Below, piece after piece: positions 3,079 through 34,566 of a DNA stretch of 36,012 nucleotides. How positions within the stretch are numbered: position 1 is the first letter of the stretch; each line of letters starts with the position of its first letter. The notes under the pieces are model-generated. The model worked only from the letters and a program-made list of their open reading frames with translations. It made no database searches and was not told the origin of the DNA. The position numbers and the translations under genes were made by a program. This stretch comes from a virus (taxonomy: Duplodnaviria; Heunggongvirae; Uroviricota; Caudoviricetes). The stretch is from IMG/VR virus record IMGVR_UViG_2654587772_000001; one strand, given 5' to 3'.

Positions 3079-3365
3079 ATAATTAACCAGAGTTTTTAAC
3101 GCACTTAATCGTGCGGGGCTTCTTTTTGCCTGGAGAAAGTCATGCATACAGTTTCTGAAAATCAGTGCGGTAAATACGCATTACTGCTGCAACAGGCCTG
3201 AACCGAAGCACAGGCCGACGCTGCGACGCGCTTTTCTTCTCATCTTGACGCCATGATTCGCCACATCACAAAGGCGGAGTTATCCCGCGTGGAGATAGTT
3301 GAGCTGCTCAGTCAGGAGTCGGAAAAATTTCACAATATCGGATTGTCTCGCGGGGAGGTGCTTTG

Positions 3366-3668
3366 ATGTCCTGTTCTCGTTCGGTTGTATTACTGAATAA
3401 CGCCTTAAAAATCGCCGTTATGAAAAATGGTGATTTGTCTCTTATTCAACTTGGTCTTGATAAAGAAAAACGCGAAATAACTGAGTCTGTTATCGCGATT
3501 TATCAGAACGAATTAAATCTCCTGTCTGATGTGGTCAATTTACTTGTTAAACGCGCTGTATTTCACAAGAAAATCTCCTCCGTGGATGAACTGACAAAAT
3601 TAACGACAGAAATTGCCAGCTATTGCGCTGATGAATTTAAAAAACTTAACGACAAAAGGAGCTGGTAA
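3366..3668 (+). CDS. hypothetical early protein (P2 orf81-like)
   Basis: 100-aa ORF from first ATG (the track start at 3363 is TTG); RBS GGGGAGG about 7 nt upstream; stop overlaps next start. Confidence 0.55.
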   Translation: MSCSRSVVLLNNALKIAVMKNGDLSLIQLGLDKEKREITESVIAIYQNELNLLSDVVNLLVKRAVFHKKISSVDELTKLTTEIASYCADEFKKLNDKRSW

Positions 3669-3892
3669 TGCCGGACAACGTAGATTTTATTCAGGAACAA
3701 CAGGCTGAATTACTGGAGCGTCAGATTAACGCGGCAAGGGTAAAACATTGCGGTGCTTCTGCGCTGGTTTGCGAAGAGTGTGACGCGCCAATACCTGCTG
3801 CCCGTCGTGCGGCTTATCCGTCAGCCACGCGTTGTGTTTCCTGTCAGTCAGTCTTTGAAGCAAAAAACAAACATTACCGGAGAACGGCATGA
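3668..3892 (+). CDS. TraR/DksA-family C4 zinc-finger protein (P2 orf82-like)
   Basis: 74-aa ORF with CxxC...CxxC (CEECDAP...CVSCQ); translationally coupled to its neighbours. Confidence 0.7.
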   Translation: MPDNVDFIQEQQAELLERQINAARVKHCGASALVCEECDAPIPAARRAAYPSATRCVSCQSVFEAKNKHYRRTA

Positions 3893-4164
3893 GTATTCGT
3901 ATTGAAATTGGCGAACGTTATGTCGTTACCAGTGACAGCTTTCAGTTTATTCTCCACGAGAAAAAGAGAGCGGAAAGCGGTAAAAACGCCGGTCAGGAAT
4001 GGCTGGCGGTGGTTGGTTATTACCCGAAATTAAGCCAGCTCGTTTCCGGCCTGATGCATCACGATATTCTGACCGGAAGCGCAAAATCTTTTGCTGATTT
4101 AAACGCGCAGGTTGAGCAACTCAGCAGGCGTTGTTCAGAGGCTTTTGGCTCACATGGACGTTAA
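3889..4164 (+). CDS. hypothetical early protein (P2 orf83-like)
   Basis: 91-aa ORF, ATGA overlap with the upstream gene; position immediately before A. Confidence 0.6.
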   Translation: MSIRIEIGERYVVTSDSFQFILHEKKRAESGKNAGQEWLAVVGYYPKLSQLVSGLMHHDILTGSAKSFADLNAQVEQLSRRCSEAFGSHGR

Positions 4165-6427
4165 AGCCTCCGGGCGTTTTGTCCCTCCGTCAGCATTTGC
4201 CGCAGGCACCGGTAAGACGTTTACCGGTGCTTATGCATGGAACGCGCCACGCGAGGCCGTCGGGCGCGAAAGACCCCTTACACGTGACGAGATGCGTCAG
4301 GTGCAAGGTGTTTTATCCACGATTAACCGCCTGCCTTACTTTTTGCGTTCGCTGTTTACTTCACGCTATGACTACATCCGGCGCAATAAAAGCCCGGTGC
4401 ACGGGTTTTATTTCCTCACATCCACTTTTCAGCGTCGTTTATGGCCGCGCATTGAGCGCGTGAATCAGCGCCATGAAATGAACACCGACGCGTCGTTGCT
4501 GTTTCTGGCAGAGCGTGACCACTATGCGCGCCTGCCTGGAATGAATGACAAGGAGCTGAAAAAGTTTGCCGCCCGTATCTCATCGCAGCTTTTCATGATG
4601 TATGAGGAACTCTGCGATGCATGGGGTGATGCGCATGGTGAAAAAGAATCGCTGTTTACGGATGAGGCGCAGGCTCACCTCTATGGTCATGTTGCTGGCG
4701 CTGCACGTGCTTTCAATATTTCCCCGCTCTACTGGAAAAAATACCGTAAAGGACAGATGACCACGAGGCAGGCATATTCTGCCATTGCCCGTCTGTTTAA
4801 CGATGAGTGGTGGATTAGTCAGCTTAAAGGCCAGCGTATGCGCTGGCATGAGGCGTTACTGATTGCTGTCGGGGAGGTCAATAAAGACCGTTCTCCTTAT
4901 GCCAGTAAACATGCCATTCGTGATGTGCGTGCGCGCCGCCAGGCAAATCTGGAATTTCTTAAATCGTGTGACCTTGAAAACAGGGAAACCGGCGAGCGCA
5001 TCGACCTTATCAGTAAGGTGATGGGCAGTATTTCTAATCCTGAAATTCGCCGGATGGAGCTGATGAACACCATTGCCGGTATTGAGCGTTACGCCGCCGC
5101 AGAGGGTGATGTGGGGATGTTTATCACGCTGACCGCGCCGTCAAAGTATCACCCGACACGTCAGGTCGGAAAAGGCGAAAGTAAAACCGTTCAGCTTAAT
5201 CACGGCTGGAACGATGAGGCATTTAATCCAAAGGATGCGCAGCGTTATCTCTGCCGTATCTGGAGCCTGATGCGCACGGCATTCAAGGATAATGATTTAC
5301 AGGTCTACGGTTTGCGAGTCGTCGAGCCACACCACGACGGAACGCCGCACTGGCATATGATGCTTTTTTGTCATCCACGCCAGCGTAACCAGATTATCGA
5401 AATCATGCGTCGCTATGCGCTCAAAGAGGATGGCGACGAAAGAGGAGCCGCGCGAAACCGTTTTCAGGCAAAACACCTTAACCGGGGCGGTGCTGCGGGA
5501 TATATCGCGAAATACATTTCAAAAAACATCGACGGCTATGCACTGGATGGTCAGCTCGATAACGACACCGGCAGGCCGCTGAAAGACACTGCAGCGGCTG
5601 TTACCGCATGGGCGTCAACGTGGCGCATTCCGCAATTTAAAACAGTTGGCCTGCCGACAATGGGGGCTTACCGTGAACTACGCAAATTGCCTCGCGGCGT
5701 CAGCATTGCTGATGAGTTTGACGAGCGCGTCGAGGCTGCACGCGCCGCCGCAGACAGTGGTGATTTTGCGTTGTATATCAGCGCGCAGGGTGGGGCAAAT
5801 GTCCCGCGCGATTGTCAGACTGTCAGGGTCGCCCGTAGCCCGTCGGATGACGTTAACGAGTATGAGGAAGAAGTCGAGAGAGTGGTCGGCATTTACGCGC
5901 CGCATCTCGGCGCGCGTCATATTCATATCACCAGAACGACGGACTGGCGCATTGTGCCGAAAGTTCCGGTCGTGGAGCCTTTGACTTTAAAAAGCGGCAT
6001 CGCCGCGCCTCGGAGTCCTGTCAATAACTGTGGAAAACTCACCGGTGGTGATACTTCGTTACCGGCTCCCACACCTTCTGAGCACGCCGCAGCAGTGCTT
6101 AATCTGGTAGATGACGGTGTTATCGAATGGAATGACCAGGAGGTCGTGAGGGCGCTCAGAGGTGCATTAAAACACGGTCTGAGAAGACCAAACCGTCAGC
6201 AAAGAAACGGAAGCCCGTTAAAACCGCATGAAATAGCGCCATCGGCCAGACTGACCCGGTCGGAACGAATGCAAATTACCCGTATCCGCGTTGACCTTGC
6301 TCAGAACGGTATCAGGCCGCAGCGATGGGAGCTTGAGGCGCTGGCGCGTGGTGCAATTGTGAACTATGGCGCAAAAGAATTTCATTACCATGTTCAGAAG
6401 GCGTGGGAAGCATTTTCGAGGTGGTAA
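4154..6427 (+). CDS. A: replication initiation endonuclease A (rolling-circle initiator)
   Basis: Track ORF 4112..6427 starts at TTG; first ATG is 4154 (MDVKASGRFVPP...), about 757 aa; long match to remembered P2 gpA including the HxH metal motif (PHWHMMLF) and the YxxK active-site region (AGYIAKYISK). Confidence 0.9.
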   Translation: MDVKASGRFVPPSAFAAGTGKTFTGAYAWNAPREAVGRERPLTRDEMRQVQGVLSTINRLPYFLRSLFTSRYDYIRRNKSPVHGFYFLTSTFQRRLWPRIERVNQRHEMNTDASLLFLAERDHYARLPGMNDKELKKFAARISSQLFMMYEELCDAWGDAHGEKESLFTDEAQAHLYGHVAGAARAFNISPLYWKKYRKGQMTTRQAYSAIARLFNDEWWISQLKGQRMRWHEALLIAVGEVNKDRSPYASKHAIRDVRARRQANLEFLKSCDLENRETGERIDLISKVMGSISNPEIRRMELMNTIAGIERYAAAEGDVGMFITLTAPSKYHPTRQVGKGESKTVQLNHGWNDEAFNPKDAQRYLCRIWSLMRTAFKDNDLQVYGLRVVEPHHDGTPHWHMMLFCHPRQRNQIIEIMRRYALKEDGDERGAARNRFQAKHLNRGGAAGYIAKYISKNIDGYALDGQLDNDTGRPLKDTAAAVTAWASTWRIPQFKTVGLPTMGAYRELRKLPRGVSIADEFDERVEAARAAADSGDFALYISAQGGANVPRDCQTVRVARSPSDDVNEYEEEVERVVGIYAPHLGARHIHITRTTDWRIVPKVPVVEPLTLKSGIAAPRSPVNNCGKLTGGDTSLPAPTPSEHAAAVLNLVDDGVIEWNDQEVVRALRGALKHGLRRPNRQQRNGSPLKPHEIAPSARLTRSERMQITRIRVDLAQNGIRPQRWELEALARGAIVNYGAKEFHYHVQKAWEAFSRW

Positions 6428-6537
6428 TCTAAATATGAAAAATCTGCACACCGAAACACTCTTGTAGGTTGATAATTTGCAAACTAGGTGGATTTACTCT
6501 TTGATGTGTAAGAAGTTATACTACAAAAAATTGATTT

Positions 6538-7458
6538 ATGGGCTTGGCGATGTATAACGATCCTTATAGTGACCCAAAAGCGTGGGAATCATATTTCAAA
6601 AATATTGTTTGGCTACATTATAAGCCTGCTAACTGTTGTGACTTGCCAGATGAGCATGGAGGCGACTTTGGGCTGGAGTGTTACACTCTGAGTGGTCATG
6701 TTTTTCAGTGTTACTTGCCTGAGCAGTCGAGTGATATTGATAAGCTTTATAAAGCGCAACAAAAAAAGATTTATACTGATATAAAAAAGTTTTCTCAGGA
6801 TAACATTAAAGAATTAGAGGAGCTTTTTGGCACATTAAAAATTAGCCGCTGGATATTAGCTACACCATATAATAAATCGGCGAAATTAAGTCAATATTGC
6901 ACAAAAAAATCATTAAAAGTAAGAGAGTTAGGGATTTCTTACGTTGCTGATGATTTTCAAATAGTAGTGCAAACAGATCGAAATTATATAGAAGAAGCGT
7001 TCTTTCTTCGCAAAAATAACTATCAATTAAGCTTTAATATAAATGATGCGACGGCTGAGAATGCTGCTAACTTTATTAGTGAAAATACATCTTTTTTAGA
7101 TAAGCTAAATTTAAAATTACCTAAGATAAATGATGATGTATCTAGGCAGGGTTTATATAGAGAGTTTTTAATACAAAAATATCTTGATTATCAAAACTTG
7201 CTGGATGCTTTGAAGAGAGACTGGGTTGATATCTATGAAATTATCTATAACTGTGTTCAACATAGAGAACGTAATTTGGTAGGTCTCTTTCTTCTTACTT
7301 CATCAGATGCGAAACCATCAGATATAATGAAAGATGAAATCGCTTTGTTAAAGAAATGTATTGAAGAGGAAGTTAGTACGCTTAAACAGGCTGACTTGGA
7401 TAAGATAACATGGGGAGTTATTTCTGATTGGCTTATAAGATGCCCTTTAGATTTTTAG
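6538..7458 (+). CDS. hypothetical protein, gene 1 of the AT-rich cargo operon (candidate effector component)
   Basis: 306-aa ORF in AT-rich DNA at the tin/old position; no motif recognised by eye apart from a Cys/His-rich N-terminal patch (CCDLPDEHGGDFGLECYTLSGHVFQCY); weak RBS. Confidence 0.6.
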   Translation: MGLAMYNDPYSDPKAWESYFKNIVWLHYKPANCCDLPDEHGGDFGLECYTLSGHVFQCYLPEQSSDIDKLYKAQQKKIYTDIKKFSQDNIKELEELFGTLKISRWILATPYNKSAKLSQYCTKKSLKVRELGISYVADDFQIVVQTDRNYIEEAFFLRKNNYQLSFNINDATAENAANFISENTSFLDKLNLKLPKINDDVSRQGLYREFLIQKYLDYQNLLDALKRDWVDIYEIIYNCVQHRERNLVGLFLLTSSDAKPSDIMKDEIALLKKCIEEEVSTLKQADLDKITWGVISDWLIRCPLDF

Positions 7459-7459
7459 A

Positions 7460-7936
7460 ATGGAAAAGCAAATGCATATAACGATAGATGAAATAATAGG
7501 AAGGCCGTTTACGTTTAATAAACGACCTGAACATTTGCCATGTGATATGAGACCATTGTGGCGTTGCAGTTTGTTGCTGATAATATTCCTTGTCACAGGG
7601 AGAGCTGGTTGCTGTTCTTTAAAAAAACTTCATTTAATTAATTGGATGTTAAAGTCAGAGAATAATGAAGCAATGTTTGAATTCTGGCTTTTAAACAAAG
7701 AAGGTTTAAAGCCTGAAGTAAGATTGGATCCAACTTTAGATAGAGCAATACAGCTATTATTAGCAGAGGATTTTATTTTGAGAAATGAACGAGCGTTCAA
7801 AATAAATGAAAAGGGGCTTAAGGTCGCTGAGAAATTGCTTTCTCTTGATGTGTTCAAAGAAGAAAGGTTGGTGCTAAATAAACATAAGGCTGGACTGTCC
7901 GAAACTAACATTAATAAAATATTTCAGGTGGGTTAA
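7460..7936 (+). CDS. hypothetical small protein, gene 2 of the cargo operon (candidate middle/adaptor component)
   Basis: 158-aa ORF; its ATG lies 1 nt after the gene 1 stop and its stop 1 nt before the gene 3 ATG, indicating translational coupling. Confidence 0.55.
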   Translation: MEKQMHITIDEIIGRPFTFNKRPEHLPCDMRPLWRCSLLLIIFLVTGRAGCCSLKKLHLINWMLKSENNEAMFEFWLLNKEGLKPEVRLDPTLDRAIQLLLAEDFILRNERAFKINEKGLKVAEKLLSLDVFKEERLVLNKHKAGLSETNINKIFQVG

Positions 7937-7937
7937 T

Positions 7938-9959
7938 ATGTCGTTGGAAATTATTTCATTGGAGTTAGTAGCAAATACTTCGGATGGGCGTTATGGTGTT
8001 AGTATACCTTTTTCAAATGGCTTGTTTTTATTAAGAGTTGAGAATTCTCATGGTAAATCAACTTGCATGAATGGGATTGCATATGCACTTGGGATGGAAA
8101 AGGCATTAGGTGTCGGTTCTGGAAAAATCCCATTCCCTCCATCTTTGACTAGAGCACTAACGACAAAAGATAATGTTGAAGTTAGTGTAATATCATCTTA
8201 TGTTTTGCTAAAAATAAAGAATCATAAGGGAATAGAAGCATCTTTGAAAAGGAATATTATCGGTCACGATAATAATAATGTTATTTATATAGATGAGAAG
8301 AATAATGTAAAAAGTAAGAGTGGTACTTATTTTTTACATAGAGAGGGCGATACTGAAAGGGAACGTGGTTTCTATAAGTGGTTAGCTGATTTTATAGGTT
8401 GGAGTTTGCCAAATGTTCCAAACCATAATGGGAAGGACACTATTCTTTATCCATCCGTACTTTTCCCTGCATGGTATGTTGAGCAAAAAAAAGGATGGTC
8501 GTCAATTATGGCGACTGTACCAACACAATTTGGAATTAAAGAGCCAAAGAAAAGAGCTCTAGAATTTTTAATGTCTCTTGATGTTAATGATAATATTTTA
8601 TTGCGTAGTTCGTTAAGAAATGAACTTGATATTATTTATCATGATTGGAAGTTAATTAAACACAATGCAGAAGTTATTGCTTCTAAATTGTCGTCAGTTG
8701 TCACAGGGATTCCTGAACAACCAGTGGCAAAATTTGATCATTATAAGATAGATTTGATTATTAAAAATGGTAGCGTCGTTAGATCTATTGTTGATGTTCG
8801 TAATGAACTGGAAAAAGAGTTGCAAGAAATTAAGTTTGACACTCTTGGTGAGCAAGAAGAACAAACTTTACAATTATCAGTGGTTAAGTTATTAGGTCAA
8901 AAAAATGATGAAATTAACTCTCTGGAATTAAAGATTAAAGAGATTTGTGAGCATAGAAGTTATATTCAATATCAAATTCAGGCGACCAAAAACAGATTGT
9001 ATAATCTGTTGGAAGATAAAAGGAAGTATGAAGATTTAAAGAAAATATCATCTTCGGATGCGTATAAGTCAACAGATTTAATGTCAAATATTTGTCCGAC
9101 TTGTGGTGCAAGTTATAATGATAATTTGCTAAGTTTTTCATCGCAAGAAAATCTGATGACATATGAAGATAGTTTGAACTTTATTAAAGAGCAAGTAAAA
9201 GCATTTGAGTTTGTTCTGTCGGATAGTGAAAAGCAATTAAAGCTTAAAGATGTTGAGAGGAGTGATTTAGAGGGGGAAATAGCCAAGATTAGAGTTGATA
9301 TTAATGCATTAAGGGAGTCAAAATATCCCTCAATGGTTGTTCAGGAGGAGTTTCTGAGACGTAAAATAAACATTGAGAATAAAATTAATGCCATTAACGA
9401 TGGCATTAAAAGTATATTGGACATTAGACTGGAGTTGGATTCATTACACCGTAGATATAAAAAGCTTATCGCGAAAAGAAAAGGGTTGCCAGATAATTTC
9501 TTGTCGCGTAATGATGCCGATAAGTTAAAATTTCTTAATAAAGAAGTCGTTGCACGATTAGAAAAATATAATTTTACAAGTTTTGATTCTAAACTTGTGT
9601 CAATATCAGAAGATAATTACTTACCTACTAGGGAAGGATATGATATAGGTTTTGACACATCAGCTAGTGATGGAATAAGAATCATTTGGGGTTATTTAAT
9701 AAGTTTATTTGTTGTTGGTTCTAAATTTCAAACAAATCACCCTGGATTGATTGTGTTTGATGAGCCTCGTCAACAAGAAGCAAATAAAGTAAGTTTTGCC
9801 GAGTTACTTAAAGATGCTGCAGAAACAACAAAAGGACAAGGGCAGATCATTTTTGCTACATCAGAAGATGAAAATGTCTTAAAAGAGGCATTAGAAGGGT
9901 ATGACTATACAATGATATCCTTTGATAAGAACAATGGGAAATTGTTGAGGAAATTATAA
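7938..9959 (+). CDS. SMC/Rad50-like ABC ATPase with coiled coil and CxxC hook (LmuB/DdmC-like), gene 3 of the cargo operon
   Basis: 673 aa; Walker A VENSHGKST (aa 34-42); long E/K/L-rich heptad-like region aa 280-540; CPTC at aa 386-389 (nt 9093..9104) mid coiled coil; signature-like SASDG and Walker B GLIVFDEP (aa 603-610); SD AGGTGG upstream. Confidence 0.75.
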   Translation: MSLEIISLELVANTSDGRYGVSIPFSNGLFLLRVENSHGKSTCMNGIAYALGMEKALGVGSGKIPFPPSLTRALTTKDNVEVSVISSYVLLKIKNHKGIEASLKRNIIGHDNNNVIYIDEKNNVKSKSGTYFLHREGDTERERGFYKWLADFIGWSLPNVPNHNGKDTILYPSVLFPAWYVEQKKGWSSIMATVPTQFGIKEPKKRALEFLMSLDVNDNILLRSSLRNELDIIYHDWKLIKHNAEVIASKLSSVVTGIPEQPVAKFDHYKIDLIIKNGSVVRSIVDVRNELEKELQEIKFDTLGEQEEQTLQLSVVKLLGQKNDEINSLELKIKEICEHRSYIQYQIQATKNRLYNLLEDKRKYEDLKKISSSDAYKSTDLMSNICPTCGASYNDNLLSFSSQENLMTYEDSLNFIKEQVKAFEFVLSDSEKQLKLKDVERSDLEGEIAKIRVDINALRESKYPSMVVQEEFLRRKINIENKINAINDGIKSILDIRLELDSLHRRYKKLIAKRKGLPDNFLSRNDADKLKFLNKEVVARLEKYNFTSFDSKLVSISEDNYLPTREGYDIGFDTSASDGIRIIWGYLISLFVVGSKFQTNHPGLIVFDEPRQQEANKVSFAELLKDAAETTKGQGQIIFATSEDENVLKEALEGYDYTMISFDKNNGKLLRKL

Positions 9960-10082: not shown

Positions 10083-10101
10083 GGCGAGGCGGGGAAAGCA
10101 C
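10083..10101. other. cos site (19-nt cohesive end GGCGAGGCGGGGAAAGCAC)
   Basis: Sequence matches the P2 cohesive-end sequence as remembered; located in the GC-rich intergenic region upstream of Q, as in P2. Confidence 0.45.
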
Positions 10102-10270: not shown

Positions 10271-11305
10271 TCAGCCGTTGTCAGTGTCCAGTGAGTAGTT
10301 TTTAAAGCGGATGACCTCCTGACCGAGCCAGCCGTTTATCTCGCGGATCCTGTCCTGTAACGGGATAAGCTCATTGCGGACAAAGACCTTTGCCACTTTC
10401 TCTATATCACCCAGCGATCCGACGTTCTCCGGCTTGCCACCCATCAACTGAAAGGGGATGCGGTGCGCGTCCAGCAGGTCAGCGGCGCTGGCTTTTTTGA
10501 TATTAAAAAAATCGTCCTTCGTCGCCACTTCACTGAGGGGGATAATTTTAATGCCGTCGGCTTTCCCCTGTGGGGCATAGAGAAACAGATTTTTAAAGTT
10601 ATTGCGGCCTTTCGACTTAACCATGTTTTCGCGTAGCATTTCGATATCGTTGCGATCCTGCACGGCATCAGTGACGTACATGATGTATCCGGCATGTGCG
10701 CCATTTTCGTAATACTTGCGGCGGAACAGCGTGGCCGACTCATTCAGCCAGGCAGAATTAAGGGCGCTGAGATATTCCGGCAGACCGTACAGCTCCTGAT
10801 TAATATCCGGCTCCAGCAGGTGAAACACGGAGCCGGGCGCGAAGGCTGTCGGCTCGTTGAAGGACGGCACCCACCAGTAAACATCCTCTTCCACACCACG
10901 GCGGGTATATTTTGCCGGTGAGGTTTCCAGTCTGATGACCTTACCGGTGGTACTGTAACGCTTTTCCAGAAACGCATTGCCGAACACCAGAAAATCCAGC
11001 ACAAAGCGGCTGAAATCCTGCTGGGAAAGCCACGGATGCGGAATAAACGTTGAAGCCAGAATATTGCGTTTGACGTAAATCGGTGAGCTGTGATGCACGG
11101 CAGTACGCAGGCTTTTTGCCAGACCGGTAAAGCTGACCGGCGGCTCATACCATCTGCCGTTACTGATACATTCGACGTAATCCAGAATGTCACGGCGGTC
11201 GAGCACCGGAACCGGCTCACCAAAGGTGAATGCCTCCATTTTCGGGGCGCTGGCGGCCATTGTTTTTACCGCAGGTTGCGGTGTTTTCCCTTTTTTCTTG
11301 CTCAT
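10271..11305 (-). CDS. Q: portal protein Q
   Basis: 344-aa ORF matching P2 gpQ in length and sequence; ATGA overlap with the P stop. Confidence 0.95.
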   Translation of the reverse strand: MSKKKGKTPQPAVKTMAASAPKMEAFTFGEPVPVLDRRDILDYVECISNGRWYEPPVSFTGLAKSLRTAVHHSSPIYVKRNILASTFIPHPWLSQQDFSRFVLDFLVFGNAFLEKRYSTTGKVIRLETSPAKYTRRGVEEDVYWWVPSFNEPTAFAPGSVFHLLEPDINQELYGLPEYLSALNSAWLNESATLFRRKYYENGAHAGYIMYVTDAVQDRNDIEMLRENMVKSKGRNNFKNLFLYAPQGKADGIKIIPLSEVATKDDFFNIKKASAADLLDAHRIPFQLMGGKPENVGSLGDIEKVAKVFVRNELIPLQDRIREINGWLGQEVIRFKNYSLDTDNG

Positions 11306-13077
11306 CAGTAAAACTCCAGAATGGTGGATGTCAGCGGGGTGCTGATACCGGCGGTGAGTGGCTCATTTAACAGGGCATGCATGGTCGCCCAGGCGAGGTC
11401 GGCGTGGCTGGCTTCCTCGCTGCGGCTGGCCTCATAGGTGGCGCTGCGTCCGCTGCTGGTCATGGTCTTGCGGATAGCCATAAACGAGCTGGTGATGTCG
11501 GTGGCGCTGATGTCATATTCCAGACAGCCACGGCGGATAACGTCTTTTGCCTTGAGCACCATTGCGGTTTTCATTTCTGGCGTGTAGCGGATATCGCGCG
11601 CGGCGGGATAGAACGAGCGCACGAGCTGGAACACGCCGACACCGAGGCCGGTGGCATCAATTCCGATGTATTCGACGTTGTATTTTTCGGTGAGTTTGCG
11701 GATGGATTCCGCCTGGGTGGCAAAGTCCATGCCTTTCCACTGGTGACGCTCAAGTATTCTGAATTTGCCACCGGCCACCACCGGCGGTGCCAGTACCACG
11801 CATCCGGCGCTGTCGCCACGGTGTGACGGGTCGTAACCAATCCATACCGGGCGGGAGCCGAACGGATTGGCGGCAAACGGCGCATAGTCTTCCCATTCTT
11901 CCAGCGTGTCGACCATGCAGCGTTGCAGCTCCCCGAACGGGAACACCGATGCCTTGTCGTCAACAAATTCACACATGAACAGGTTTTTAAAATCGTCGGC
12001 GCTGTTTTCGCGTTTGAGCTGCTCAATGTCGAACAACGTGCAGCCGCCTTTCAGGGCGTCCTCAATGGTGACAATCTGCCGCCACTGACCGTCCGCACAG
12101 AGAAGCCCACCGGCAAGGGCGTTATGACTGACGTCGATTTCCACGCGTTCAGCGGCGCTGGCGCGTCCCCGGTTGAACAGTTCACCCGACCAGAACGGGT
12201 AGGCGTCGTGCGCCAGCGTGGACGGGGTGGAGAAATAGGTCGAGCGCAGGTGACTCTGTGAGGCCATACCTGATGCCACCTTACGCAGTACCTGAAAATT
12301 CGGGATCCAGAAAATCTCGTCGACGTACAGGTCGCCGTTATGGCTCTGTGCGGTGTTGGAGTTGGTGCCGAGAAAAATCAGTTTTGCGCCGTTATTGCCA
12401 AGAACAATCGGGTCACCGGTCAGGTCAACGTCAACCAGACGGGCAAAGGCGATGATGTATTCACGGAATACATACGCCTGCGTTTTACTGGCCGACAGAA
12501 AAATCTGGTTATGGCCGGTTTTCAGGGCGCGCAGCAGCGCCTCGCGGGAAAAATAAAACGTCGCGCCAATCTGGCGGGATTTCAGGATATCGCGGATGCG
12601 GTGCTCAAGCCCGGCGCGATACCAGTGCAACTGATAGTCGAAAGACTGCTCAAAGAAAATCTGCTCCAGCTTTTCGATGGCTTCGTCGCTGAAAAAATTC
12701 TTTTTCGGTTTGCGACGTCCGCCTTTGTTGCGGTTAGCGACGTTCGGATTAAGGTCTGCCTCGTTGCCGGTCTGACTGTAACGGTTGACCCGTGCCAGTC
12801 GTTCAATCTGGCGTCCGAGCAGGTCAATTTCCTTGAAGTCACCACCGGTTTTCTGCGGTTTGATGATGAGCTGGGTCAGTCGCGCTTCCAGACTCATTTC
12901 GACACGGCTGATGGGGGCAACGCTGTCCCAGCCGTCGCGCTGTTTCCAGCTCTGCACCGTCGGGCGTTTCATCTGCAACATGGCGGCAATCTGCGGCACG
13001 GAAAACCCCTGCCAGTACAGCAGCGCCGCCTGACGACGCGGGTCGTGTAAAAGAGTGGTGTCTGTGGTGATGGTCAT
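11305..13077 (-). CDS. P: terminase large (ATPase) subunit P
   Basis: Track ORF extends to 13107; first ATG at 13077 gives 590 aa, the P2 gpP length; start reads MTITTDTTLL. Confidence 0.95.
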   Translation of the reverse strand: MTITTDTTLLHDPRRQAALLYWQGFSVPQIAAMLQMKRPTVQSWKQRDGWDSVAPISRVEMSLEARLTQLIIKPQKTGGDFKEIDLLGRQIERLARVNRYSQTGNEADLNPNVANRNKGGRRKPKKNFFSDEAIEKLEQIFFEQSFDYQLHWYRAGLEHRIRDILKSRQIGATFYFSREALLRALKTGHNQIFLSASKTQAYVFREYIIAFARLVDVDLTGDPIVLGNNGAKLIFLGTNSNTAQSHNGDLYVDEIFWIPNFQVLRKVASGMASQSHLRSTYFSTPSTLAHDAYPFWSGELFNRGRASAAERVEIDVSHNALAGGLLCADGQWRQIVTIEDALKGGCTLFDIEQLKRENSADDFKNLFMCEFVDDKASVFPFGELQRCMVDTLEEWEDYAPFAANPFGSRPVWIGYDPSHRGDSAGCVVLAPPVVAGGKFRILERHQWKGMDFATQAESIRKLTEKYNVEYIGIDATGLGVGVFQLVRSFYPAARDIRYTPEMKTAMVLKAKDVIRRGCLEYDISATDITSSFMAIRKTMTSSGRSATYEASRSEEASHADLAWATMHALLNEPLTAGISTPLTSTILEFY

Positions 13078-13145
13078 GAATACCTCGCCGTGATGAATAC
13101 ACGGCAAGGCTACTGAGTCGCGCCCTGCGATTCGCTAAGGTGCTG

Positions 13146-13172: not shown

Positions 13173-13250
13173 TGATGGCGGAGGATGCGCATCGTCGGGA
13201 AACTGATGCCGACATGTGACTCCTCTAATCACTATTCAGGACTCCTGACA

Positions 13251-13865
13251 ATGGCAAAAAAAGTCTCAAAATTCTTTCGTATCGGCGTTGAGGGTGACAC
13301 CTGTGACGGGCGTGTCATCAGTGCGCAGGATATTCAGGAAATGGCTGAAACCTTTGACCCGCGTGTCTACGGTTGCCGCATTAACCTGGAACATCTGCGC
13401 GGCATCCTGCCTGACGGTATTTTTAAACGTTATGGCGATGTGGTCGAACTGAAGGCCGAAAAGATTGATGACGATTCGGCGCTGAAAGGCAAATGGGCGC
13501 TGTTTGCGAAAATCACCCCGACCGATGACCTTATCGCGATGAACAAGGCCGCGCAGAAGGTCTATACCTCAATGGAAATTCAGCCGAACTTTGCCAACAC
13601 CGGCAAATGTTATCTGGTGGGGCTGGCCGTCACCGATGACCCGGCAAGCCTCGGCACGGAATACCTGGAATTCTGCCGCACGGCAAAACACAACCCTCTG
13701 AACCGCTTCAAATTAAGCCCTGAAAACCTGATTTCAGTGGCAACGCCCGTTGAGCTGGAATTTGAAGACCTGCCTGAAACCGTGTTCACCGCCCTGACCG
13801 AAAAGGTGAAATCCATTTTTGGCCGCAAACAGGCCAGCGATGACGCCCTGATGACGAACTGCTGA
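13251..13865 (+). CDS. O: capsid scaffolding protein/protease O (shorter than canonical)
   Basis: First ATG 13251 (MAKKVSKFFRIGVEGDTCDGR...) gives 204 aa; track ORF starts upstream without a plausible start; N-terminus matches P2 gpO. Confidence 0.85.
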   Translation: MAKKVSKFFRIGVEGDTCDGRVISAQDIQEMAETFDPRVYGCRINLEHLRGILPDGIFKRYGDVVELKAEKIDDDSALKGKWALFAKITPTDDLIAMNKAAQKVYTSMEIQPNFANTGKCYLVGLAVTDDPASLGTEYLEFCRTAKHNPLNRFKLSPENLISVATPVELEFEDLPETVFTALTEKVKSIFGRKQASDDALMTNC

Positions 13866-13923: not shown

Positions 13924-14997
13924 ATGCGCCAGGAAACCCGCTTTAAATTTAATGCTTACCTGTCCCGTGTTGCCGAACTGAACGGCATCGACGCCGGTGA
14001 TGTGTCGAAAAAATTCACCGTTGAACCGTCGGTCACCCAGACCCTGATGAACACCATGCAGGAGTCCTCTGACTTTCTGACCCGCATCAACATTGTGCCG
14101 GTCAGCGAAATGAAAGGGGAAAAAATTGGCATCGGTGTCACCGGCTCCATCGCCAGCACCACCGACACCGCCGGTGGCACCGAGCGTCAGCCGAAGGACT
14201 TCTCGAAGTTGGCGTCAAACAAGTACGAATGCGACCAGATTAACTTCGATTTTTATATCCGCTACAAAACGCTGGACCTGTGGGCGCGTTATCAGGATTT
14301 CCAGCTCCGTGTCCGTAACGCCATTATCAAACGCCAGTCCCTTGATTTCATCATGGCCGGTTTTAACGGCGTGAGGCGTGCCGAAACCTCTGACCGCAGC
14401 AGTAACCCGATGCTGCAGGATGTGGCGGTCGGCTGGCTGCAGAAATACCGCAATGAAGCCCCGGCGCGCGTGATGAGCAAGGTTACTGACGAGGAAGGTC
14501 ACACGACCTCTGAGGTCATCCGCGTGGGTAAGGGCGGTGATTATGCCAGCCTTGATGCACTGGTGATGGATGCGACCAACAACCTGATTGAGCCGTGGTA
14601 TCAGGAAGACCCTGACCTTGTGGTGATTGTGGGACGTCAGCTACTGGCGGACAAGTATTTTCCCATCGTCAACAAGGAGCAGGACAACAGCGAAATGCTG
14701 GCCGCTGACGTCATCATCAGCCAGAAACGCATCGGCAACCTGCCAGCGGTACGCGTCCCGTACTTCCCGGCGGATGCGATGCTCATCACGAAGCTGGAAA
14801 ACCTGTCCATCTACTACATGGATGACAGCCATCGCCGCGTGATTGAGGAAAACCCGAAACTCGACCGCGTGGAGAACTACGAGTCAATGAACATTGATTA
14901 CGTGGTGGAGGACTACGCCGCCGGTTGTCTGGTGGAAAAAATTAAGGTCGGTGATTTCTCCACACCGGCTAAAGCGACCGCAGAGCCGGGAGCGTAA
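13924..14997 (+). CDS. N: major capsid protein N
   Basis: 357-aa ORF matching P2 gpN in length and sequence. Confidence 0.95.
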   Translation: MRQETRFKFNAYLSRVAELNGIDAGDVSKKFTVEPSVTQTLMNTMQESSDFLTRINIVPVSEMKGEKIGIGVTGSIASTTDTAGGTERQPKDFSKLASNKYECDQINFDFYIRYKTLDLWARYQDFQLRVRNAIIKRQSLDFIMAGFNGVRRAETSDRSSNPMLQDVAVGWLQKYRNEAPARVMSKVTDEEGHTTSEVIRVGKGGDYASLDALVMDATNNLIEPWYQEDPDLVVIVGRQLLADKYFPIVNKEQDNSEMLAADVIISQKRIGNLPAVRVPYFPADAMLITKLENLSIYYMDDSHRRVIEENPKLDRVENYESMNIDYVVEDYAAGCLVEKIKVGDFSTPAKATAEPGA

Positions 14998-15000
14998 CCG

Positions 15001-15744
15001 ATGACGAGTCCCGCACAGCGCCACATGATGCGGGTCTCGGCAGCGATGGCCGCGCAGCGGGAAGCCGCCCCGCTGCGACATGCAACTGTCTATGAGCAGA
15101 TGCTGGTCAAGCTGGCCGCAGACCAGCGCACACTGAAAGCGATTTATTCAAAAGAGCTGAAGGCCGCGAAAAAACGCGAACTGCTGCCGTTCTGGTTGCC
15201 GTGGGTGAACGGCGTGCTGGAGCAGGGCAAAGGTGCACCGGATGACATTCTGATGACGGTCATGCTGTGGCGTCTGGATACCGGCGATATTGCCGGTGCG
15301 CTGGAGATTGCCCGTTATGCCCTGAAGTACGGTCTGACCATGCCGGGTAAACACCGCCGCACCCCGCCGTACATGTTCACCGAGGAGGTGGCGCTCGCGG
15401 CCATGCGCGCCCACGCGGCCGGTGAGTCTGTGGATACCCGCCTGCTGACGGAGACCCTTGAACTGACTGCCGCTGCTGACATGCCTGATGAAGTGCGCGC
15501 AAAGCTGCACAAAATCACCGGTCTGTTTCTGCGTGACGGTGGTGATGCCGCCGGTGCGCTGGCTCACCTGCAACGTGCGACACAGCTCGACTGTCAGGCA
15601 GGCGTCAAAAAAGAGATTGAACGACTGGAGCGGGAGCTGAAACCGAAGCCGGAGCCGCAACCCAAAGCGGCCACCCGTGCCACGCGTAAGACCCGGAGCG
15701 TGACACCGGCAAAACGTGGACGCCCGAAAAAGAAAGCCAGTTAA
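15001..15744 (+). CDS. M: terminase small (endonuclease) subunit M
   Basis: 247-aa ORF; P2 gpM length and position; basic C-terminal tail. Confidence 0.9.
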   Translation: MTSPAQRHMMRVSAAMAAQREAAPLRHATVYEQMLVKLAADQRTLKAIYSKELKAAKKRELLPFWLPWVNGVLEQGKGAPDDILMTVMLWRLDTGDIAGALEIARYALKYGLTMPGKHRRTPPYMFTEEVALAAMRAHAAGESVDTRLLTETLELTAAADMPDEVRAKLHKITGLFLRDGGDAAGALAHLQRATQLDCQAGVKKEIERLERELKPKPEPQPKAATRATRKTRSVTPAKRGRPKKKAS

Positions 15745-19235: not shown

Positions 19236-19775
19236 GTGACATGTAAAAAGAATGAAGGTGATGTTGTAAAGAAAATTGAACTGGTGCTGAAAACAATCGC
19301 GCGGACGGATTCTTATTTAAATTCAGCCAATACTAAATCAACGATATTACTAAGCTTAGCTTCAGCTGTAATTGTTGCTATTATAGCAAATTTTGACAAA
19401 GTTATATGTCTGGTAGATGTGGATAGTGATAGGATTTTTCTCTCTCTTTTATTGATTGTAATAGTTGGGTTATTGGTGATCTCTTTGTTATTTTCTCTAA
19501 AAGGTGTTACTCCAAATATCTCTAAGAGTGATAAGGAGAATACTTTTTCATTTGTTGATATATCAAGTTATTATAGTAGTCTTGATTGCTATTCTAGTAG
19601 TTTTAAGTCAGTGAGTGATCTGGAGTTGTTGGAGCAGTTAATTGCATTGAATTATACTCTTTCCAGAGCATTAACTAGCAAATATGAGATGCAAATCATA
19701 GCCATTGACTTTATAAAAATGGCTGTTTATGTGCTTTGTTTTTTAATATATGTGGTTGCTTTATCTAATTGGTGA
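19236..19775 (+). CDS. small membrane protein with 3 predicted TM helices (candidate membrane effector, SLATT/PycTM-like)
   Basis: 179-aa ORF from GTG 19236 (no in-frame ATG until near the end); SD AGGAAGG upstream; hydrophobic stretches STILLSLASAVIVAIIANF, IFLSLLLIVIVGLLVISLLFSL, MAVYVLCFLIYVVALS; AT-rich. Confidence 0.55.
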   Translation: MTCKKNEGDVVKKIELVLKTIARTDSYLNSANTKSTILLSLASAVIVAIIANFDKVICLVDVDSDRIFLSLLLIVIVGLLVISLLFSLKGVTPNISKSDKENTFSFVDISSYYSSLDCYSSSFKSVSDLELLEQLIALNYTLSRALTSKYEMQIIAIDFIKMAVYVLCFLIYVVALSNW

Positions 19776-19785
19776 AGGTTTTTGT

Positions 19786-21138
19786 ATGTCCATAAAGAGT
19801 ATTTATTTAGTATTAGATGAAAGGCTGGAAGAGATAATTTCAAAATCAAAATCGCAATCAGTCCATGATGCTATATTTGAATCAGTGGATAATACACAGT
19901 TGGCCACGGAGAGCTTAAGTAAATCTTCTGGTTTCGTAAGAAGTTCTATTTCATTGAAAAAAGATGTAGGTGGAGCTGATGTTCAAAGTTATCAGGTGAA
20001 AGATATTGTTAGAAATAAATTTGGCAAGCACGGTCCACTCATGACAAGTTTTGGATGTCATCCGGACTTTAATAAAATGGATGATGGTGAGGTGAGAAAT
20101 GGTTATTCCATTACCATGTTTATGGATATAATCGGCTCAACTAAACTTGGGGTTGTTTTTCCACCAGAAATAGTATTTAGAATCAAAAATGATATTATAA
20201 GATGTGCGATCGAAACAGTGAATGCATTTGATGGTCACGTCCATAGAATTATGGGTGATGCAGTAATGGCATTTTTCCGAAGTAATGACCGATATAAAAA
20301 CAATAAGATCGCAGACAGTGCAATTGATGCAATAAACTGTGCCGTTGTTTTGATTGAAATGTTCAAGGGGGTTGTTATACCTAAATTGAGTGATTTGGGA
20401 GTTGACGAAAACTTAGGAATAAGAATTGGTCTTGACTATGGCCCTCACGAGGAAGTGGTGTGGTCAAAATATGGCTATATGGAAAGTCATGAAGTGACTG
20501 CGACATCTTTTTTTGTTGATGTTGCGGCAAAACTTCAGCAAAAAGCTCCTAAAAACTCAATTATGATAGGTGCAAGTTTTGTAGAGTTATTAGGCCTTGA
20601 TGATGTTCAATTAAAACATAAAATTAACAGAAACAATGGCGTAGAACACAAGGAATTGTATTTAACCCCAAATTATAAAGATGCTTCAGGCAAACCAATA
20701 AATTACAGACAATATGTATTTGATAACGAACGTTATTGTAATTTGCTGCCTATAAATGATGAGGGGGGTAAACTCATTGTAAAAGCAACGCTTAAGAAGA
20801 GTGAAAATGATGTGTCTGATGATGAGTATATTTGTTGTTCTCGAATGATAAAAAAGGGTATGGGTATCTCATTTAAAGGGTACTATTACTCACAAGAACA
20901 GTACTCTAATCCCAGGTTCAAATTTCGTGTCGAAAATACAGGTCCTGATGCAGGTAATGTTGATAATAAGGGTAATCATGAGTCATATGAGGTAGCAAGG
21001 TACACTGGCGAGCGTTATTTTGCTAAGCATTGGGAAGATTGTCATTACAAAGGACTGCATTATATGTTTGTATCTTTTTGGAATGGGGATCAATTAATAG
21101 AAAGGGAGAGGTGTTTTTCAGTTTTTATTAACGATTAA
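19786..21138 (+). CDS. class III nucleotidyl cyclase-domain protein (candidate PycC-like cyclase)
   Basis: 450 aa from ATG 19786 (SD GAAGG 8 nt upstream; track start 19750 overlaps the upstream gene); motifs SITMFMDIIGSTKL (aa 108-121), HRIMGDAVMAFF (153-164), GIRIGLDYGP (211-220), SFFVDVAAKL (241-250) resembling the FxDIxGFT / IGDxxMA / GIHxGxV / VNxAARL blocks of adenylyl/guanylyl-type cyclases. Confidence 0.7.
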   Translation: MSIKSIYLVLDERLEEIISKSKSQSVHDAIFESVDNTQLATESLSKSSGFVRSSISLKKDVGGADVQSYQVKDIVRNKFGKHGPLMTSFGCHPDFNKMDDGEVRNGYSITMFMDIIGSTKLGVVFPPEIVFRIKNDIIRCAIETVNAFDGHVHRIMGDAVMAFFRSNDRYKNNKIADSAIDAINCAVVLIEMFKGVVIPKLSDLGVDENLGIRIGLDYGPHEEVVWSKYGYMESHEVTATSFFVDVAAKLQQKAPKNSIMIGASFVELLGLDDVQLKHKINRNNGVEHKELYLTPNYKDASGKPINYRQYVFDNERYCNLLPINDEGGKLIVKATLKKSENDVSDDEYICCSRMIKKGMGISFKGYYYSQEQYSNPRFKFRVENTGPDAGNVDNKGNHESYEVARYTGERYFAKHWEDCHYKGLHYMFVSFWNGDQLIERERCFSVFIND

Positions 21139-25057: not shown

Positions 25058-25659
25058 TGCATAAAGCAATATTAAATAGTGAGCTCATTGCAACAAAGGC
25101 AGGGGATGTTACCGTTTATAACTATGATGGTGAAACACGGGAATATATTTCCACTTCAAATGAATATCTTGCCGTTGGTGTCGGCATTCCGGCATGTTCC
25201 TGTTTAGATGCCCCTGGCACACATAAGGCTGGTTATGCAATCTGCCGTTCTGCAGATTTTAACTCATGGGAATATGTGCCAGACCATCGCGGTGAAACGG
25301 TCTATAGCACCGAAACAGGAGAATCAAAAGAAATCACCGCTCCGGGTGATTACCCTGAAAATACAACCACTATCGCCCCATTAACGCCATATGATAAATG
25401 GGATGGTGAGAAATGGGTGACGGATACCGAGGCACAGCATAGCGCCGCAGTAGATGCAGCAGAAGCACAGCGCCAGTCGCTGATTGATACTGCAATGGCT
25501 TCCATCAGTCTGATTCAACTGAAATTGCAGGCCGGACGTAAACTGACGCAGGCAGAAACAACCCGGCTTAACGCTGTGCTGGATTACATTGACGCGGTGA
25601 CGGCAACAGATACCAGCACCGCGCCGGATGTCATCTGGCCTGAACTGCCGGAGGCGTAG
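25057..25659 (+). CDS. G: tail fibre assembly chaperone (G / Tfa)
   Basis: 200-aa ORF with start overlapping the H stop; Tfa-like sequence with conserved C-terminal region (RLNAVLDYIDAVTATDTSTAPDVIWPELP). Confidence 0.8.
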   Translation: MHKAILNSELIATKAGDVTVYNYDGETREYISTSNEYLAVGVGIPACSCLDAPGTHKAGYAICRSADFNSWEYVPDHRGETVYSTETGESKEITAPGDYPENTTTIAPLTPYDKWDGEKWVTDTEAQHSAAVDAAEAQRQSLIDTAMASISLIQLKLQAGRKLTQAETTRLNAVLDYIDAVTATDTSTAPDVIWPELPEA

Positions 25660-26083
25660 GCCATTCAATATCTGGTGCACTGGAGGTATCAACCAGCTCC
25701 AGTGCATCCAGATAATCCAGCCACAAATTATATTGCGCCAGTTCCTCACCTTTCAGACGACCAATAGCGGCTTTACCGGGCCATTGCTTACTGTTCATGT
25801 ATTCGTTGGCCTGGTTAATTAGTAGCTGTCTTTCTGATTCAGTAATTTCAATAAGCTCTTCATGCGTGGGTGGAGGAATATCTGCCCACGCAGGCAGCCC
25901 ATCATCTCCGGCAATACGGATTTTTCCTTGTGGCGGTTCAGCCATAAACTCACTGATAATATTTTGATTTACTTCCTTAGCGTCTGATAAATCCCATCCC
26001 TCTGATTTATATTTATCAATCATATCCACAGGGAAAAAAGCATTATGCCTTGCGCTATAAACATATTCGTTCATATAAATCAC
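25631..26083 (-). CDS. alternative tail fibre assembly chaperone (inverted orientation)
   Basis: 150-aa ORF convergent with G, with related C-terminus (YNLWLDYLDALELVDTSSAPDIEWPTPP). Confidence 0.7.
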   Translation of the reverse strand: MIYMNEYVYSARHNAFFPVDMIDKYKSEGWDLSDAKEVNQNIISEFMAEPPQGKIRIAGDDGLPAWADIPPPTHEELIEITESERQLLINQANEYMNSKQWPGKAAIGRLKGEELAQYNLWLDYLDALELVDTSSAPDIEWPTPPAVQAR

Positions 26084-26094
26084 CCTGAATAAAA

Positions 26095-26463
26095 TTACTC
26101 ACCAACAGCCCACCAACTGTAATTCATCGATACCGTGTCGCTGGTTGATGACGTTCTGTAAGCAGAATTAAAGCCGGTTAACGTTGGGCCTTCTGCAGTC
26201 ATCACGAACCCTCGCCCAGCGCCTAAAGGCGCACCGCCATCACCAGAATGAGTAAGCATGGCGCAGTCCGCTTTTTTGGGGAAAGGGATGCTGAATGTAA
26301 TTCTCATTGTTTGCGTCGATAATGTCGGCGTAACCGCACCACGACCATATTGCAGGATTTTCCCGTTGGGTAATTTCATCCATCCATCACCACTGGCAAA
26401 AGAGGCCATGTCCGGTATCTGATTTTCCCCTGTCCCCACATCCCGTTTTGCCGCTTCTCTCAA
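26095..26463 (-). CDS. alternative tail fibre C-terminal segment (promoter-less and start-less; would fuse to H after inversion)
   Basis: Open frame on the minus strand running to the crossover site at about 26466 with no credible own start; Gly/Thr/Ser-rich fibre-tip-like sequence. Confidence 0.6.
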   Translation of the reverse strand: MREAAKRDVGTGENQIPDMASFASGDGWMKLPNGKILQYGRGAVTPTLSTQTMRITFSIPFPKKADCAMLTHSGDGGAPLGAGRGFVMTAEGPTLTGFNSAYRTSSTSDTVSMNYSWWAVGE

Positions 26464-26480
26464 ACCAACGTTTTATGGAA
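26455..26480. repeat. invertase crossover site (hix/gix-like), right copy
   Basis: TTCTCTCAAACCAACGTTTTATGGAA; inverted-repeat partner of 24548..24573. Confidence 0.45.
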
Positions 26481-26570
26481 TCGGTTAAATATGATGTTGA
26501 AAGAAGGGAGTGTCCTAGTATTGATTGTTAGATAAAAATGGAAAGTGCTGATTGTAACGGTATATTTTAA

Positions 26571-26598
26571 GATGGTAACACCAAATGGTGCTACCATC
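26571..26598. terminator. candidate bidirectional rho-independent terminator
   Basis: Hairpin GATGGTAACACC-AAAT-GGTGCTACCATC followed by TTTATT on the + strand and by an A/T-rich tract on the - strand; lies just downstream of the minus-strand 105-aa gene. Confidence 0.4.
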
Positions 26599-26606
26599 TT
26601 TATTAG

Positions 26607-26924
26607 TTATCTGTTCCTTCTGAGGATTCCGCTACTCCCTTGTGTTGTAGGGTTTAATTTTTTCCAATAATGATAACCTTGTGATGTAATCCTTAGAGAG
26701 GCAGTATCTACACTCCATCCATCAATACTTTCAGGAGAACCATCGAAGATTACCTTTCCTGTAAGATACCCATCGTCATGCAGAAAGGCGATATATCCAT
26801 AAACTTCTTTTAAATCACCAATTTCATTGACTAGGCGTTCCCACGCTTGAACAGTGATTCTCTCTGGATAGGCTTCGACAAAATATTTCAGTGTGGTAGT
26901 TTTTTTATTGGTATCGATGTTCAT
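26607..26924 (-). CDS. hypothetical protein (AT-rich moron between the invertible segment and the invertase)
   Basis: 105-aa ORF with ATG at 26924 and a good SD (AAGGAAA) upstream on the minus strand; AT-rich; no recognisable motif. Confidence 0.5.
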   Translation of the reverse strand: MNIDTNKKTTTLKYFVEAYPERITVQAWERLVNEIGDLKEVYGYIAFLHDDGYLTGKVIFDGSPESIDGWSVDTASLRITSQGYHYWKKLNPTTQGSSGILRRNR

Positions 26925-27122
26925 CAGATTTTCCTTTTATTGAGGTCAACCTATCTTACCATACTTATTTGTTTCACATGGGAATGCTAAGTGGGCTATG
27001 TATCCACTATCAGTAAATATTCTTATCCAGCAAGATTACTGTAACTGAGAGCTCCATAGCCTTGTCCGCTTGTACATATATAGATAATTCTGTGTCATTA
27101 TTCTGTTTTTATAGGGATTTTT

Positions 27123-34479: not shown

Positions 34480-34506
34480 AAAAAATAAGCCCGTGTAAGG
34501 GAGATT
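34480..34506. repeat. attR core (27-bp direct repeat), also the 3' end of cyaR
   Basis: Identical to 476..502. Confidence 0.8.
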
Positions 34507-34566
34507 ACACAGGCTAAGGAGGTGGTTCCTGGTACAGCTAGCATTTTATGGGTTATGTTTTTCAGC
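34480..34566 (-). ncRNA. cyaR: CRP-dependent sRNA CyaR (RyeE)
   Basis: Reverse complement reads GCTGAAAAACATAACCCATAAAATGCTAGCTGTACCAGGAACCACCTCCTTAGCCTGTGTAATCTCCCTTACACGGGCTTATTTTTT (87 nt), matching the remembered E. coli CyaR, with a terminal hairpin and U-tail. Confidence 0.85.

Follow-up and report, generated by a model that had tools for sequence, protein, structure and literature searches.

The window analysed here is the whole 36,012-nucleotide stretch of the Caudoviricetes record IMGVR_UViG_2654587772_000001, a P2-like prophage in which a three-gene block (6428-9959) lies directly after the replication gene A. Its three plus-strand open reading frames (ORFs) of 306, 158 and 673 aa are present in the ORF list just as a first inspection of the letters alone (hereinafter the sequence-only reading) had described them. 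The gpA-gpQ interval, next to cos, is the P2 hotspot, which contains old and tin in P2 itself and is an established defence locus with a variable cargo slot that harbors many other defence genes (Rousset 2022, PMC9122126). We find that the block is very probably a complete and intact 'short' Lamassu system of the Mrr-nuclease type (lmuA-lmuC-lmuB), carried as accessory cargo of the A-cos hotspot of the prophage. The cassette and its borders comprise the following features:

4112-6427: P2 A-like replication endonuclease, left flank of the cassette
6428-6537, plus strand: intergenic region between the gene A stop and lmuA, with a candidate native promoter, TTTACT-18-TATACT, at 6493-6522
6538-7458 (306 aa) or from 6550 (302 aa), plus strand: lmuA, effector, with an N-domain of about aa 1-150 and a helical ABC-three-component C-terminal domain ('ABC-3C CTD') of about aa 150-306
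6661-6678, plus strand: putative active-site residues G42-D43-x-G45-x-E47 of LmuA, from conservation
6706-6714, plus strand: putative active-site residues Q57-C58-Y59 of LmuA, from conservation
6766-6768, plus strand: putative active-site residue K77 of LmuA, from conservation
7460-7936 (158 aa) or from 7472 (154 aa), plus strand: lmuC, middle component, matching PADLOC LmuC model PDLC03871 (2.5e-23)
7938-9959 (673 aa), plus strand: lmuB, Rad50/SbcC-like ABC ATPase and putative sensor, matching PADLOC LmuB model PDLC03863 (1.1e-98, residues 1-669)
8052-8063, plus strand: LmuB Walker A, GKST (aa 39-42), with K40 as its lysine
9093-9104, plus strand: LmuB CxxC hook, CPTC (aa 386-389)
9660-9674, plus strand: LmuB signature-like SASDG (aa 575-579)
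9747-9764, plus strand: LmuB Walker B, LIVFDE (aa 604-609)
10083-10101, plus strand: 19-nt cohesive-end sequence, an exact match to GGCGAGGCGGGGAAAGCAC, which we take to be the P2 cos sequence; right boundary of the hotspot, outside the system
10271-11305, minus strand: portal Q, right flank
11305-13107, minus strand: terminase P, right flank

The block has an overall G+C content (GC) of 33.0%, as compared to 53.5% for gene A and 55.3% for the Q and P genes; its 400-nt windows range from 0.29 to 0.375, and the 20-35% given in the sequence-only reading was thus slightly too low. Both the NCBI Prokaryotic Genome Annotation Pipeline (PGAP) and most homologues start lmuA at ATG 6550 (302 aa, MYNDPY...), which is most likely the true start rather than ATG 6538, and lmuC at ATG 7472 (154 aa), which may likewise be its start instead of ATG 7460. 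Because of these alternative starts, of the single-nucleotide gaps between stop and start proposed for both junctions, only that between lmuC and lmuB (TAA-A-ATG, with a GGTGGG Shine-Dalgarno ahead) is firm. Upstream of lmuA, a consensus scan of 6428-6537 returned a lone plus-strand sigma-70-like site with 9 of 12 consensus positions matched, a candidate promoter by its match to the consensus only. A terminator scan found no convincing plus-strand intrinsic terminator 3' of lmuB, and Rfam, tRNA and repeat scans of the three-gene block gave no matches. In E. coli FDAARGOS_1249 an IS5 transposase (record positions 3137-4105) sits in the short gene A-lmuA interval, where the candidate promoter lies, and the operon could be silenced or re-driven in that strain.

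The products of the three genes are members of the LmuA, LmuC and LmuB families, respectively. PADLOC-DB v2 (2023) hidden Markov models (HMMs) match all three near their full lengths, gene 1 with the LmuA model PDLC03852 (1.1e-29, residues 12-299), and genes 2 and 3 as listed above, whereas neither Old/Tin nor any other non-Lamassu PADLOC model does so. To fix the subtype, the proteins of the Lamassu-Mrr system of E. coli O150:H5 SE15 were taken from the supplement of Millman 2022 and scanned with the same models. PDLC03852 is the best model of both LmuA proteins (1.4e-105 for SE15), PDLC03871 of both LmuC proteins (4e-57 for SE15) and PDLC03863 of both LmuB proteins (2.6e-105 for the first 399 aa of SE15 LmuB); a cyanobacterial relative of the window system has the same best models. 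Since the window and SE15 systems share their best models, the former is a Mrr-type Lamassu by the PADLOC/DefenseFinder classification. No Pfam or NCBIfam model reached its threshold for any of the three proteins (AAA_23, at 18.9 bits, fell short of its cutoff of 27), while their full-length matches in PHROGs are to families of 'unknown function'.

Gene 3 is the SMC/Rad50-like ABC ATPase that the sequence-only reading had recognized, with intact Walker A, signature-like and Walker B motifs split by a coiled coil. Nine further PADLOC LmuB models also match it. That reading had the two hook cysteines, C386 and C389, right, but numbered the Walker A lysine as K41 instead of K40. Across 30 homologues, down to 27% identity, N36, G39, K40, S41, C386, P387, C389, A576, S577, D578, D608 and E609 are invariant. 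Searched against the PDB, the LmuB family profile finds weak matches to Rad50/SMC N-termini (E about 1e-3) and to the Rad50 zinc-hook fragment 1l8d (E 0.038), and its portion corresponding to residues ~275-550 matches coiled-coil proteins.

The sequence-only reading had found no recognizable effector in gene 1, a view that its predicted fold does not support. An AlphaFold2 model from a 59-sequence alignment (predicted local distance difference test, pLDDT, 91; predicted TM score, pTM, 0.80) comprises an α/β N-domain (aa 13-145) followed by a seven-helix C-domain (aa 151-301). Fold searches with it recover V. cholerae LmuA (9nxx_A, scoring 9.4), FokI (9.0), the CdiA-CT EC869 DNase (8.6), N.BspD6I (8.5), AF1548 (8.3), LlaBIII (8.0) and Avs4 (7.4). 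Judged from this model, gene 1 is a predicted nuclease with a restriction-endonuclease fold (PD-(D/E)xK, Mrr/FokI-like) fused to the helical Lamassu C-terminal domain known from solved LmuA structures, and it thus shows the pairing of a variable N-terminal effector with a conserved C-terminal (ABC-3C CTD) domain that is expected of LmuA.

A search of 5.8 billion proteins yielded 147 LmuA relatives of ~300 aa, all of them unnamed and none with a Pfam domain; with HMMER, the clade amounts to 908 clusters (50% identity) at E <= 1e-3 among 1.84 billion representatives. Conservation was assessed over 148 sequences, namely the window protein and 147 cluster representatives at 50% identity, which are mostly below 50% identical. 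G42, D43, Q57 and K77 are 100% conserved, the position of E47 is always E or D, and position 59 is Y in 142 sequences (96%) and F in the other six, with D81, K84 and K193 being near-invariant. By eye, the motif HGGDFGLEC...HVFQCY aligns with GGAGDKGRDI...HLYQCK of SE15 LmuA, and from this resemblance (GDKGRD...YQCK in SE15) we infer that the conserved residues are catalytic. The invariant K77, in the helix after strand β3, probably supplies a relocated catalytic lysine. Several enterobacterial homologues are called as proteins of 351-381 aa, as against ~302 aa for most; their extra N-termini are probably miscalled upstream in-frame starts and not added domains.

Gene 2 is placed in the LmuC family by its HMM match and by its position between lmuA and lmuB, both in the window and in 31 of the 33 related loci described below. 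Its membership rests on these two lines because its predicted fold is weakly winged-helix-like and matched no solved LmuC. The structural check that the sequence-only reading had proposed for genes 1 and 2 was productive for the nuclease fold of the former, but not for the latter, whose AlphaFold2 model (pLDDT 86) has only weak winged-helix-like matches (MUS81 WH and MarR, E about 0.1) that agree with the 'wHTH' (winged helix-turn-helix) label of Millman 2022 but prove little. The LmuC homologues are 152-161 aa long. Many of those with 152-158 aa are named 'serine/threonine protein kinase' in NCBI/UniRef; Pfam finds no kinase domain in the homologues so named, and the label looks like a propagated annotation error.

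The 'short' Lamassu class is characterized by an LmuB of ~600 aa, a Walker B of the form hhhhD[Q/S/T/E], a bundle of 5-6 helices as the LmuA C-terminal domain and a short LmuC (Haudiquet 2025, PMC12663957). The window system agrees with this in its LmuB of 673 aa with LIVFDE, its all-helical LmuA C-terminal domain and its LmuC of 154-158 aa.

Among 5426 complete E. coli genomes, 32 carry the cassette, in every case in the chromosome, with 99.4-100% identity and all three ORFs intact. In ST2747, FDAARGOS_1286 and FDAARGOS_1249, the replication endonuclease and portal genes of a P2-like prophage flank it, and its genes are annotated as 'hypothetical' or 'coiled-coil domain-containing'. The phage GenBank collection searched has neither a DNA match to the cassette (megablast) nor a protein match to LmuA (tblastn). 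Further afield, we surveyed gene order in 33 related loci from species-representative genomes of Gamma-, Beta- and Alphaproteobacteria, Cyanobacteria, Chloroflexi, Actinobacteria, Firmicutes, Acidobacteria, Verrucomicrobia and Ignavibacteria, i.e., at least eight phyla. The lmuA-lmuC-lmuB order is found in 31 of them, one being counted though its contig ends within lmuC, leaving lmuB out of view; of the other two, one has a truncated lmuA with lmuC and lmuB undetected and one is without a detected lmuB. Given this shared order and the recurrence in E. coli, the trio is not a chance pattern of ORFs. It travels as a unit between unrelated mobile elements, being present in a chromosomal islet of Shewanella, in a cyanobacterial element alongside an integrase gene and a NERD-UvrD gene, and in an integrative island of Klebsiella that also has CbtA/CbeA, AlpA and an anti-restriction gene.

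The sequence-only reading was borne out by HMMs, folds and context in proposing a Lamassu/ABC-3C-type three-component cassette in the P2 A-cos hotspot, but its suggestion of an undescribed variant was not: beyond the PADLOC matches, the cassette is P2-hotspot system #51, 'AAA_13/DUF3732', with 79 occurrences (Rousset 2022 Table S5B, PMC9122126). We found no test of system #51 among the systems tested in that study. Its identity with the 'three hypothetical proteins' system validated there against P1 was also considered and could not be confirmed, PADLOC giving Lamassu models alone. The LmuB representative of system #51 begins at an internal Met (MNGIAYALG...) and hence is without Walker A. Among Klebsiella gene calls, one record has an LmuB of 633 aa instead of 676 and another an LmuC of 70 aa. 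Such variable calls may be frameshifts or start-codon miscalls, and the system may be hidden from some pipelines.

Several results weigh against the assignment as a Lamassu-Mrr system. The canonical QxK lysine is absent from LmuA (QCY), and a Pfam scan finds no match of Mrr_cat to it. No Lamassu chain in the PDB was recovered by sequence, in either single-protein or family-profile searches, leaving the clade remote from the solved and tested systems, and the fold search with LmuC had no significant match to a solved LmuC (best E 0.11). SE15 LmuA itself went undetected by clade-profile hhalign, by hmmsearch with both the 59- and 148-sequence profiles and by BLASTP. As the clade HMMs miss it, the tie to a validated system comes from the broader PADLOC models and the fold. 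In the literature searched we found no experiment on this cassette or clade, and what we propose for its stoichiometry, its trigger and an abortive outcome derives from relatives.

The scaffold could be Lamassu while LmuA is not a DNase, its N-domain instead binding or blocking DNA, nicking it or acting on another substrate, which would make it a functionally new effector subtype. The replacement of QxK by Q57-x-Y59 in 142 of the 148 sequences, with F in the remaining six, would sit well with this, as would the lack of Mrr_cat or NCBIfam matches and the failure of clade HMMs to reach SE15 LmuA. Nevertheless, we consider it very unlikely: FokI, the CdiA-CT DNase, N.BspD6I, LlaBIII and Avs4, which the fold matches, are all active nucleases; D43, E/D47 and Q57 are retained throughout, alongside the invariant K77 and near-invariant D81 and K84 on the adjacent helix; and the tolerance of Y-to-F exchange at position 59 argues for a structural role and not a new nucleophile. 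Moreover, PD-(D/E)xK enzymes are well known for catalytic residues that have moved to other places in the fold.

Whatever its chemistry, the cassette might also be silent or decaying in the lysogen, being an AT-rich block that was acquired horizontally and now has no function. Its 33% GC in a genome of roughly 50% GC is a composition typical of targets of xenogeneic silencing, an IS5 occupies the promoter interval of one E. coli strain, and PGAP calls scaffold and DUF2732 pseudogenes in the ST2747 prophage, the one with a 100% identical cassette, which hints that the prophage is possibly defective. We regard this too as very unlikely, given that the three ORFs are intact both here and in the 32 genomes, with the putative catalytic and ATPase motifs conserved; besides, silencing would alter the level of expression and not the identity of the system. 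We give hardly any credence to a third alternative, that the block is not a conflict system but serves the phage in DNA repair or replication, as an analogue of SbcCD/Rad50-Mre11 that aids P2 replication. LmuB is indeed Rad50/SbcC-like with a zinc hook, the block directly follows the replication gene A, and Lamassu is itself proposed to derive from SbcCD (Haudiquet 2025, PMC12663957). However, when the housekeeping affinities that would speak against a defence role were looked for, Pfam and NCBIfam revealed no Mre11/SbcD phosphoesterase partner domain in gene 1 or 2, and the locus is prophage cargo occupying the variable slot of old, tin and many other defence genes. Further, the same trio occurs in non-phage islands and chromosomal islets of distant phyla, and its presence in just 32 of 5426 E. 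coli genomes indicates that P2-like phages do not need it.

For the Lamassu system that we favor, a mode of action can be proposed by analogy with V. cholerae DdmABC, the Salmonella system and E. coli SE15. Lamassu-family systems work by abortive infection and depend on the ATPase, the effector and lmuC (Millman 2022). In studied relatives, the C-terminal domain of LmuA is kept sequestered in a resting LmuA1B2C1 complex; dsDNA ends and the replication origins of phages are sensed, with ATP stimulating activation; and the released LmuA forms a tetramer in which a DNA-cleaving site is built between two nuclease domains (Haudiquet 2025, PMC12663957; Li et al. 2025). By this analogy, in the uninfected cell an LmuB dimer, presumably joined at the CxxC hook, and one LmuC would hold a single LmuA via its C-terminal domain, keeping the nuclease monomeric and inactive. 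Upon infection, the LmuB heads would bind DNA ends or replication intermediates of the invading phage (or plasmid), and ATP turnover would lead to the release of LmuA, which might then oligomerize via its C-terminal domain such that paired nuclease domains form the active site and degrade DNA indiscriminately. K77 on the following helix would provide the catalytic lysine in place of that of QxK, a position taken by Tyr or Phe here. The resulting death or arrest of the cell before the phage cycle ends would constitute abortive infection, protecting the lysogen population and hence the prophage.

The QxY clade is counted under 'Lamassu-Mrr' solely via a broad HMM. We raise, as a tentative and rather doubtful proposition, that the ~300-aa LmuA proteins form a distinct, unnamed Lamassu effector subtype, a minimal nuclease of the restriction-endonuclease fold with its catalytic lysine moved to the next helix (K77). 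If this were true, the cleavage chemistry or activation geometry could differ from those of the studied Cap4-type or canonical Mrr-type LmuA proteins.

Elsewhere, the prophage carries a second defence module, a candidate host-range segment and host flanking genes:

19236-19775, plus strand: PycTM effector, 179 aa (PADLOC PDLC02364, 8.5e-29; Pfam PycTM, 3e-6)
19750-21138, plus strand: PycC cyclase, 462 aa (PADLOC PDLC00764, 1.6e-128; Pfam Guanylate_cyc and AGS_C)
25631-26083, minus strand: tail-fibre assembly ORF (Caudo_TAP), adjoining the invertase
26095-26463, minus strand: tail-fibre C-terminus (Gp53-like_C), adjoining the invertase
27123-27716, plus strand: serine DNA invertase (Resolvase, 4e-52, and HTH_7)
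34483-34568, minus strand: CyaR/RyeE small RNA gene (Rfam, 100.7 bits), host flank
34651-36012, minus strand: yegQ-like Peptidase_U32 gene, host flank

The Pycsar pair lies between the tail-completion genes and baseplate V, in the P2 orf30 position, with the effector gene upstream of the cyclase gene, and the stretch 25631-27716 resembles an invertible host-range segment of the Gin/Cin type. The prophage occupies the yegR-cyaR site, given CyaR/yegQ at one end and, next to the integrase in the matching ST2747 record, yegS/yegR at the other. In the same record, PGAP calls a DUF2732 gene with an internal stop (record 4715-4939, ~window 3142-3366) and a capsid scaffolding gene without its C-terminus (record 14824-15432, ~window 13251-13859); the corresponding window ORF (13185-13865) spans just 226 aa. 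It may be that the prophage is defective and its defence cargo intact.

The system is already recognized by standard defence models, making it a largely ordinary find with no new kind of biology. The result mainly settles annotation, in that proteins described in RefSeq as 'hypothetical protein' and 'coiled-coil domain-containing protein' (and LmuC homologues as 'serine/threonine protein kinase') make up a complete Lamassu system, adding one more named system to the catalogue of the P2 A-cos hotspot. Together with the Pycsar pair, it gives one temperate phage two predicted abortive-infection systems. The sole point of wider interest is the rearranged putative nuclease active site (QxY + K77) in a large and widespread LmuA clade, which would be a cheap and informative target for mutagenesis.

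Among known systems, the closest comparison is with SE15 Lamassu-Mrr (system SG108 of Millman 2022), which comprises an LmuA of 379 aa ('Mrr nuclease'), an LmuC of 168 aa ('wHTH') and an LmuB of 620 aa ('SMC'), and defends E. coli by abortive infection with a requirement for the ATPase, the effector and lmuC (Millman 2022). Both share the A-C-B order, a nuclease pattern of GGxGDxGxD/E followed by a strand ending in (Y/F)QC, and a single CxxC in LmuB. However, pairwise comparison detects no similarity (BLASTP E >1; clade HMM score <1 bit). The window LmuA is ~75 aa shorter, as it is without the N-terminal extension, and LmuB is ~50 aa longer; the QCK of SE15 is QCY in the window LmuA, with the invariant K77 downstream, and the cassette is carried in the P2 hotspot. 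With the solved V. cholerae DdmABC (Lamassu Vc-Cap4) and Salmonella enterica LmuACB complexes (9nxx, 9ny1, 9ny5, 9hr5 and 9hqx), it shares the three components, the Walker A lysine at K40 and the 'short' type features. In contrast to their Cap4-type nuclease with its canonical K57, the window effector has a predicted Mrr/FokI-like domain with a putatively relocated lysine, and while Vc LmuB is without a zinc hook, the window LmuB has an invariant CPxC.

At a broader level, the coiled-coil ABC ATPase, the wHTH-like middle component and the effector with a common C-terminal domain are those of the ABC-3C systems (Krishnan, Burroughs, Iyer, Aravind 2020), and depositors in the PDB named LmuA 'ABC-three component systems C-terminal domain-containing protein'. 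The two do not really differ in kind, ABC-3C being the broader computational class and Lamassu an experimentally named subset. Like P2 old and tin, which exclude other phages, the cassette occupies the slot between A and cos, and Old likewise couples an ABC-ATPase sensor to a nuclease; however, the sequences are unrelated, and Old consists of one polypeptide, with a TOPRIM nuclease, as opposed to three proteins with an effector predicted to have the restriction-endonuclease fold. Finally, the head motifs, coiled coil and CxxC hook of LmuB recall SbcCD/Rad50-Mre11, in keeping with the origin proposed for Lamassu (Haudiquet 2025, PMC12663957), but the window system has no Mre11/SbcD phosphoesterase and a much shorter coiled coil (673 aa in total), and is mobile, patchy and AT-rich as opposed to housekeeping.

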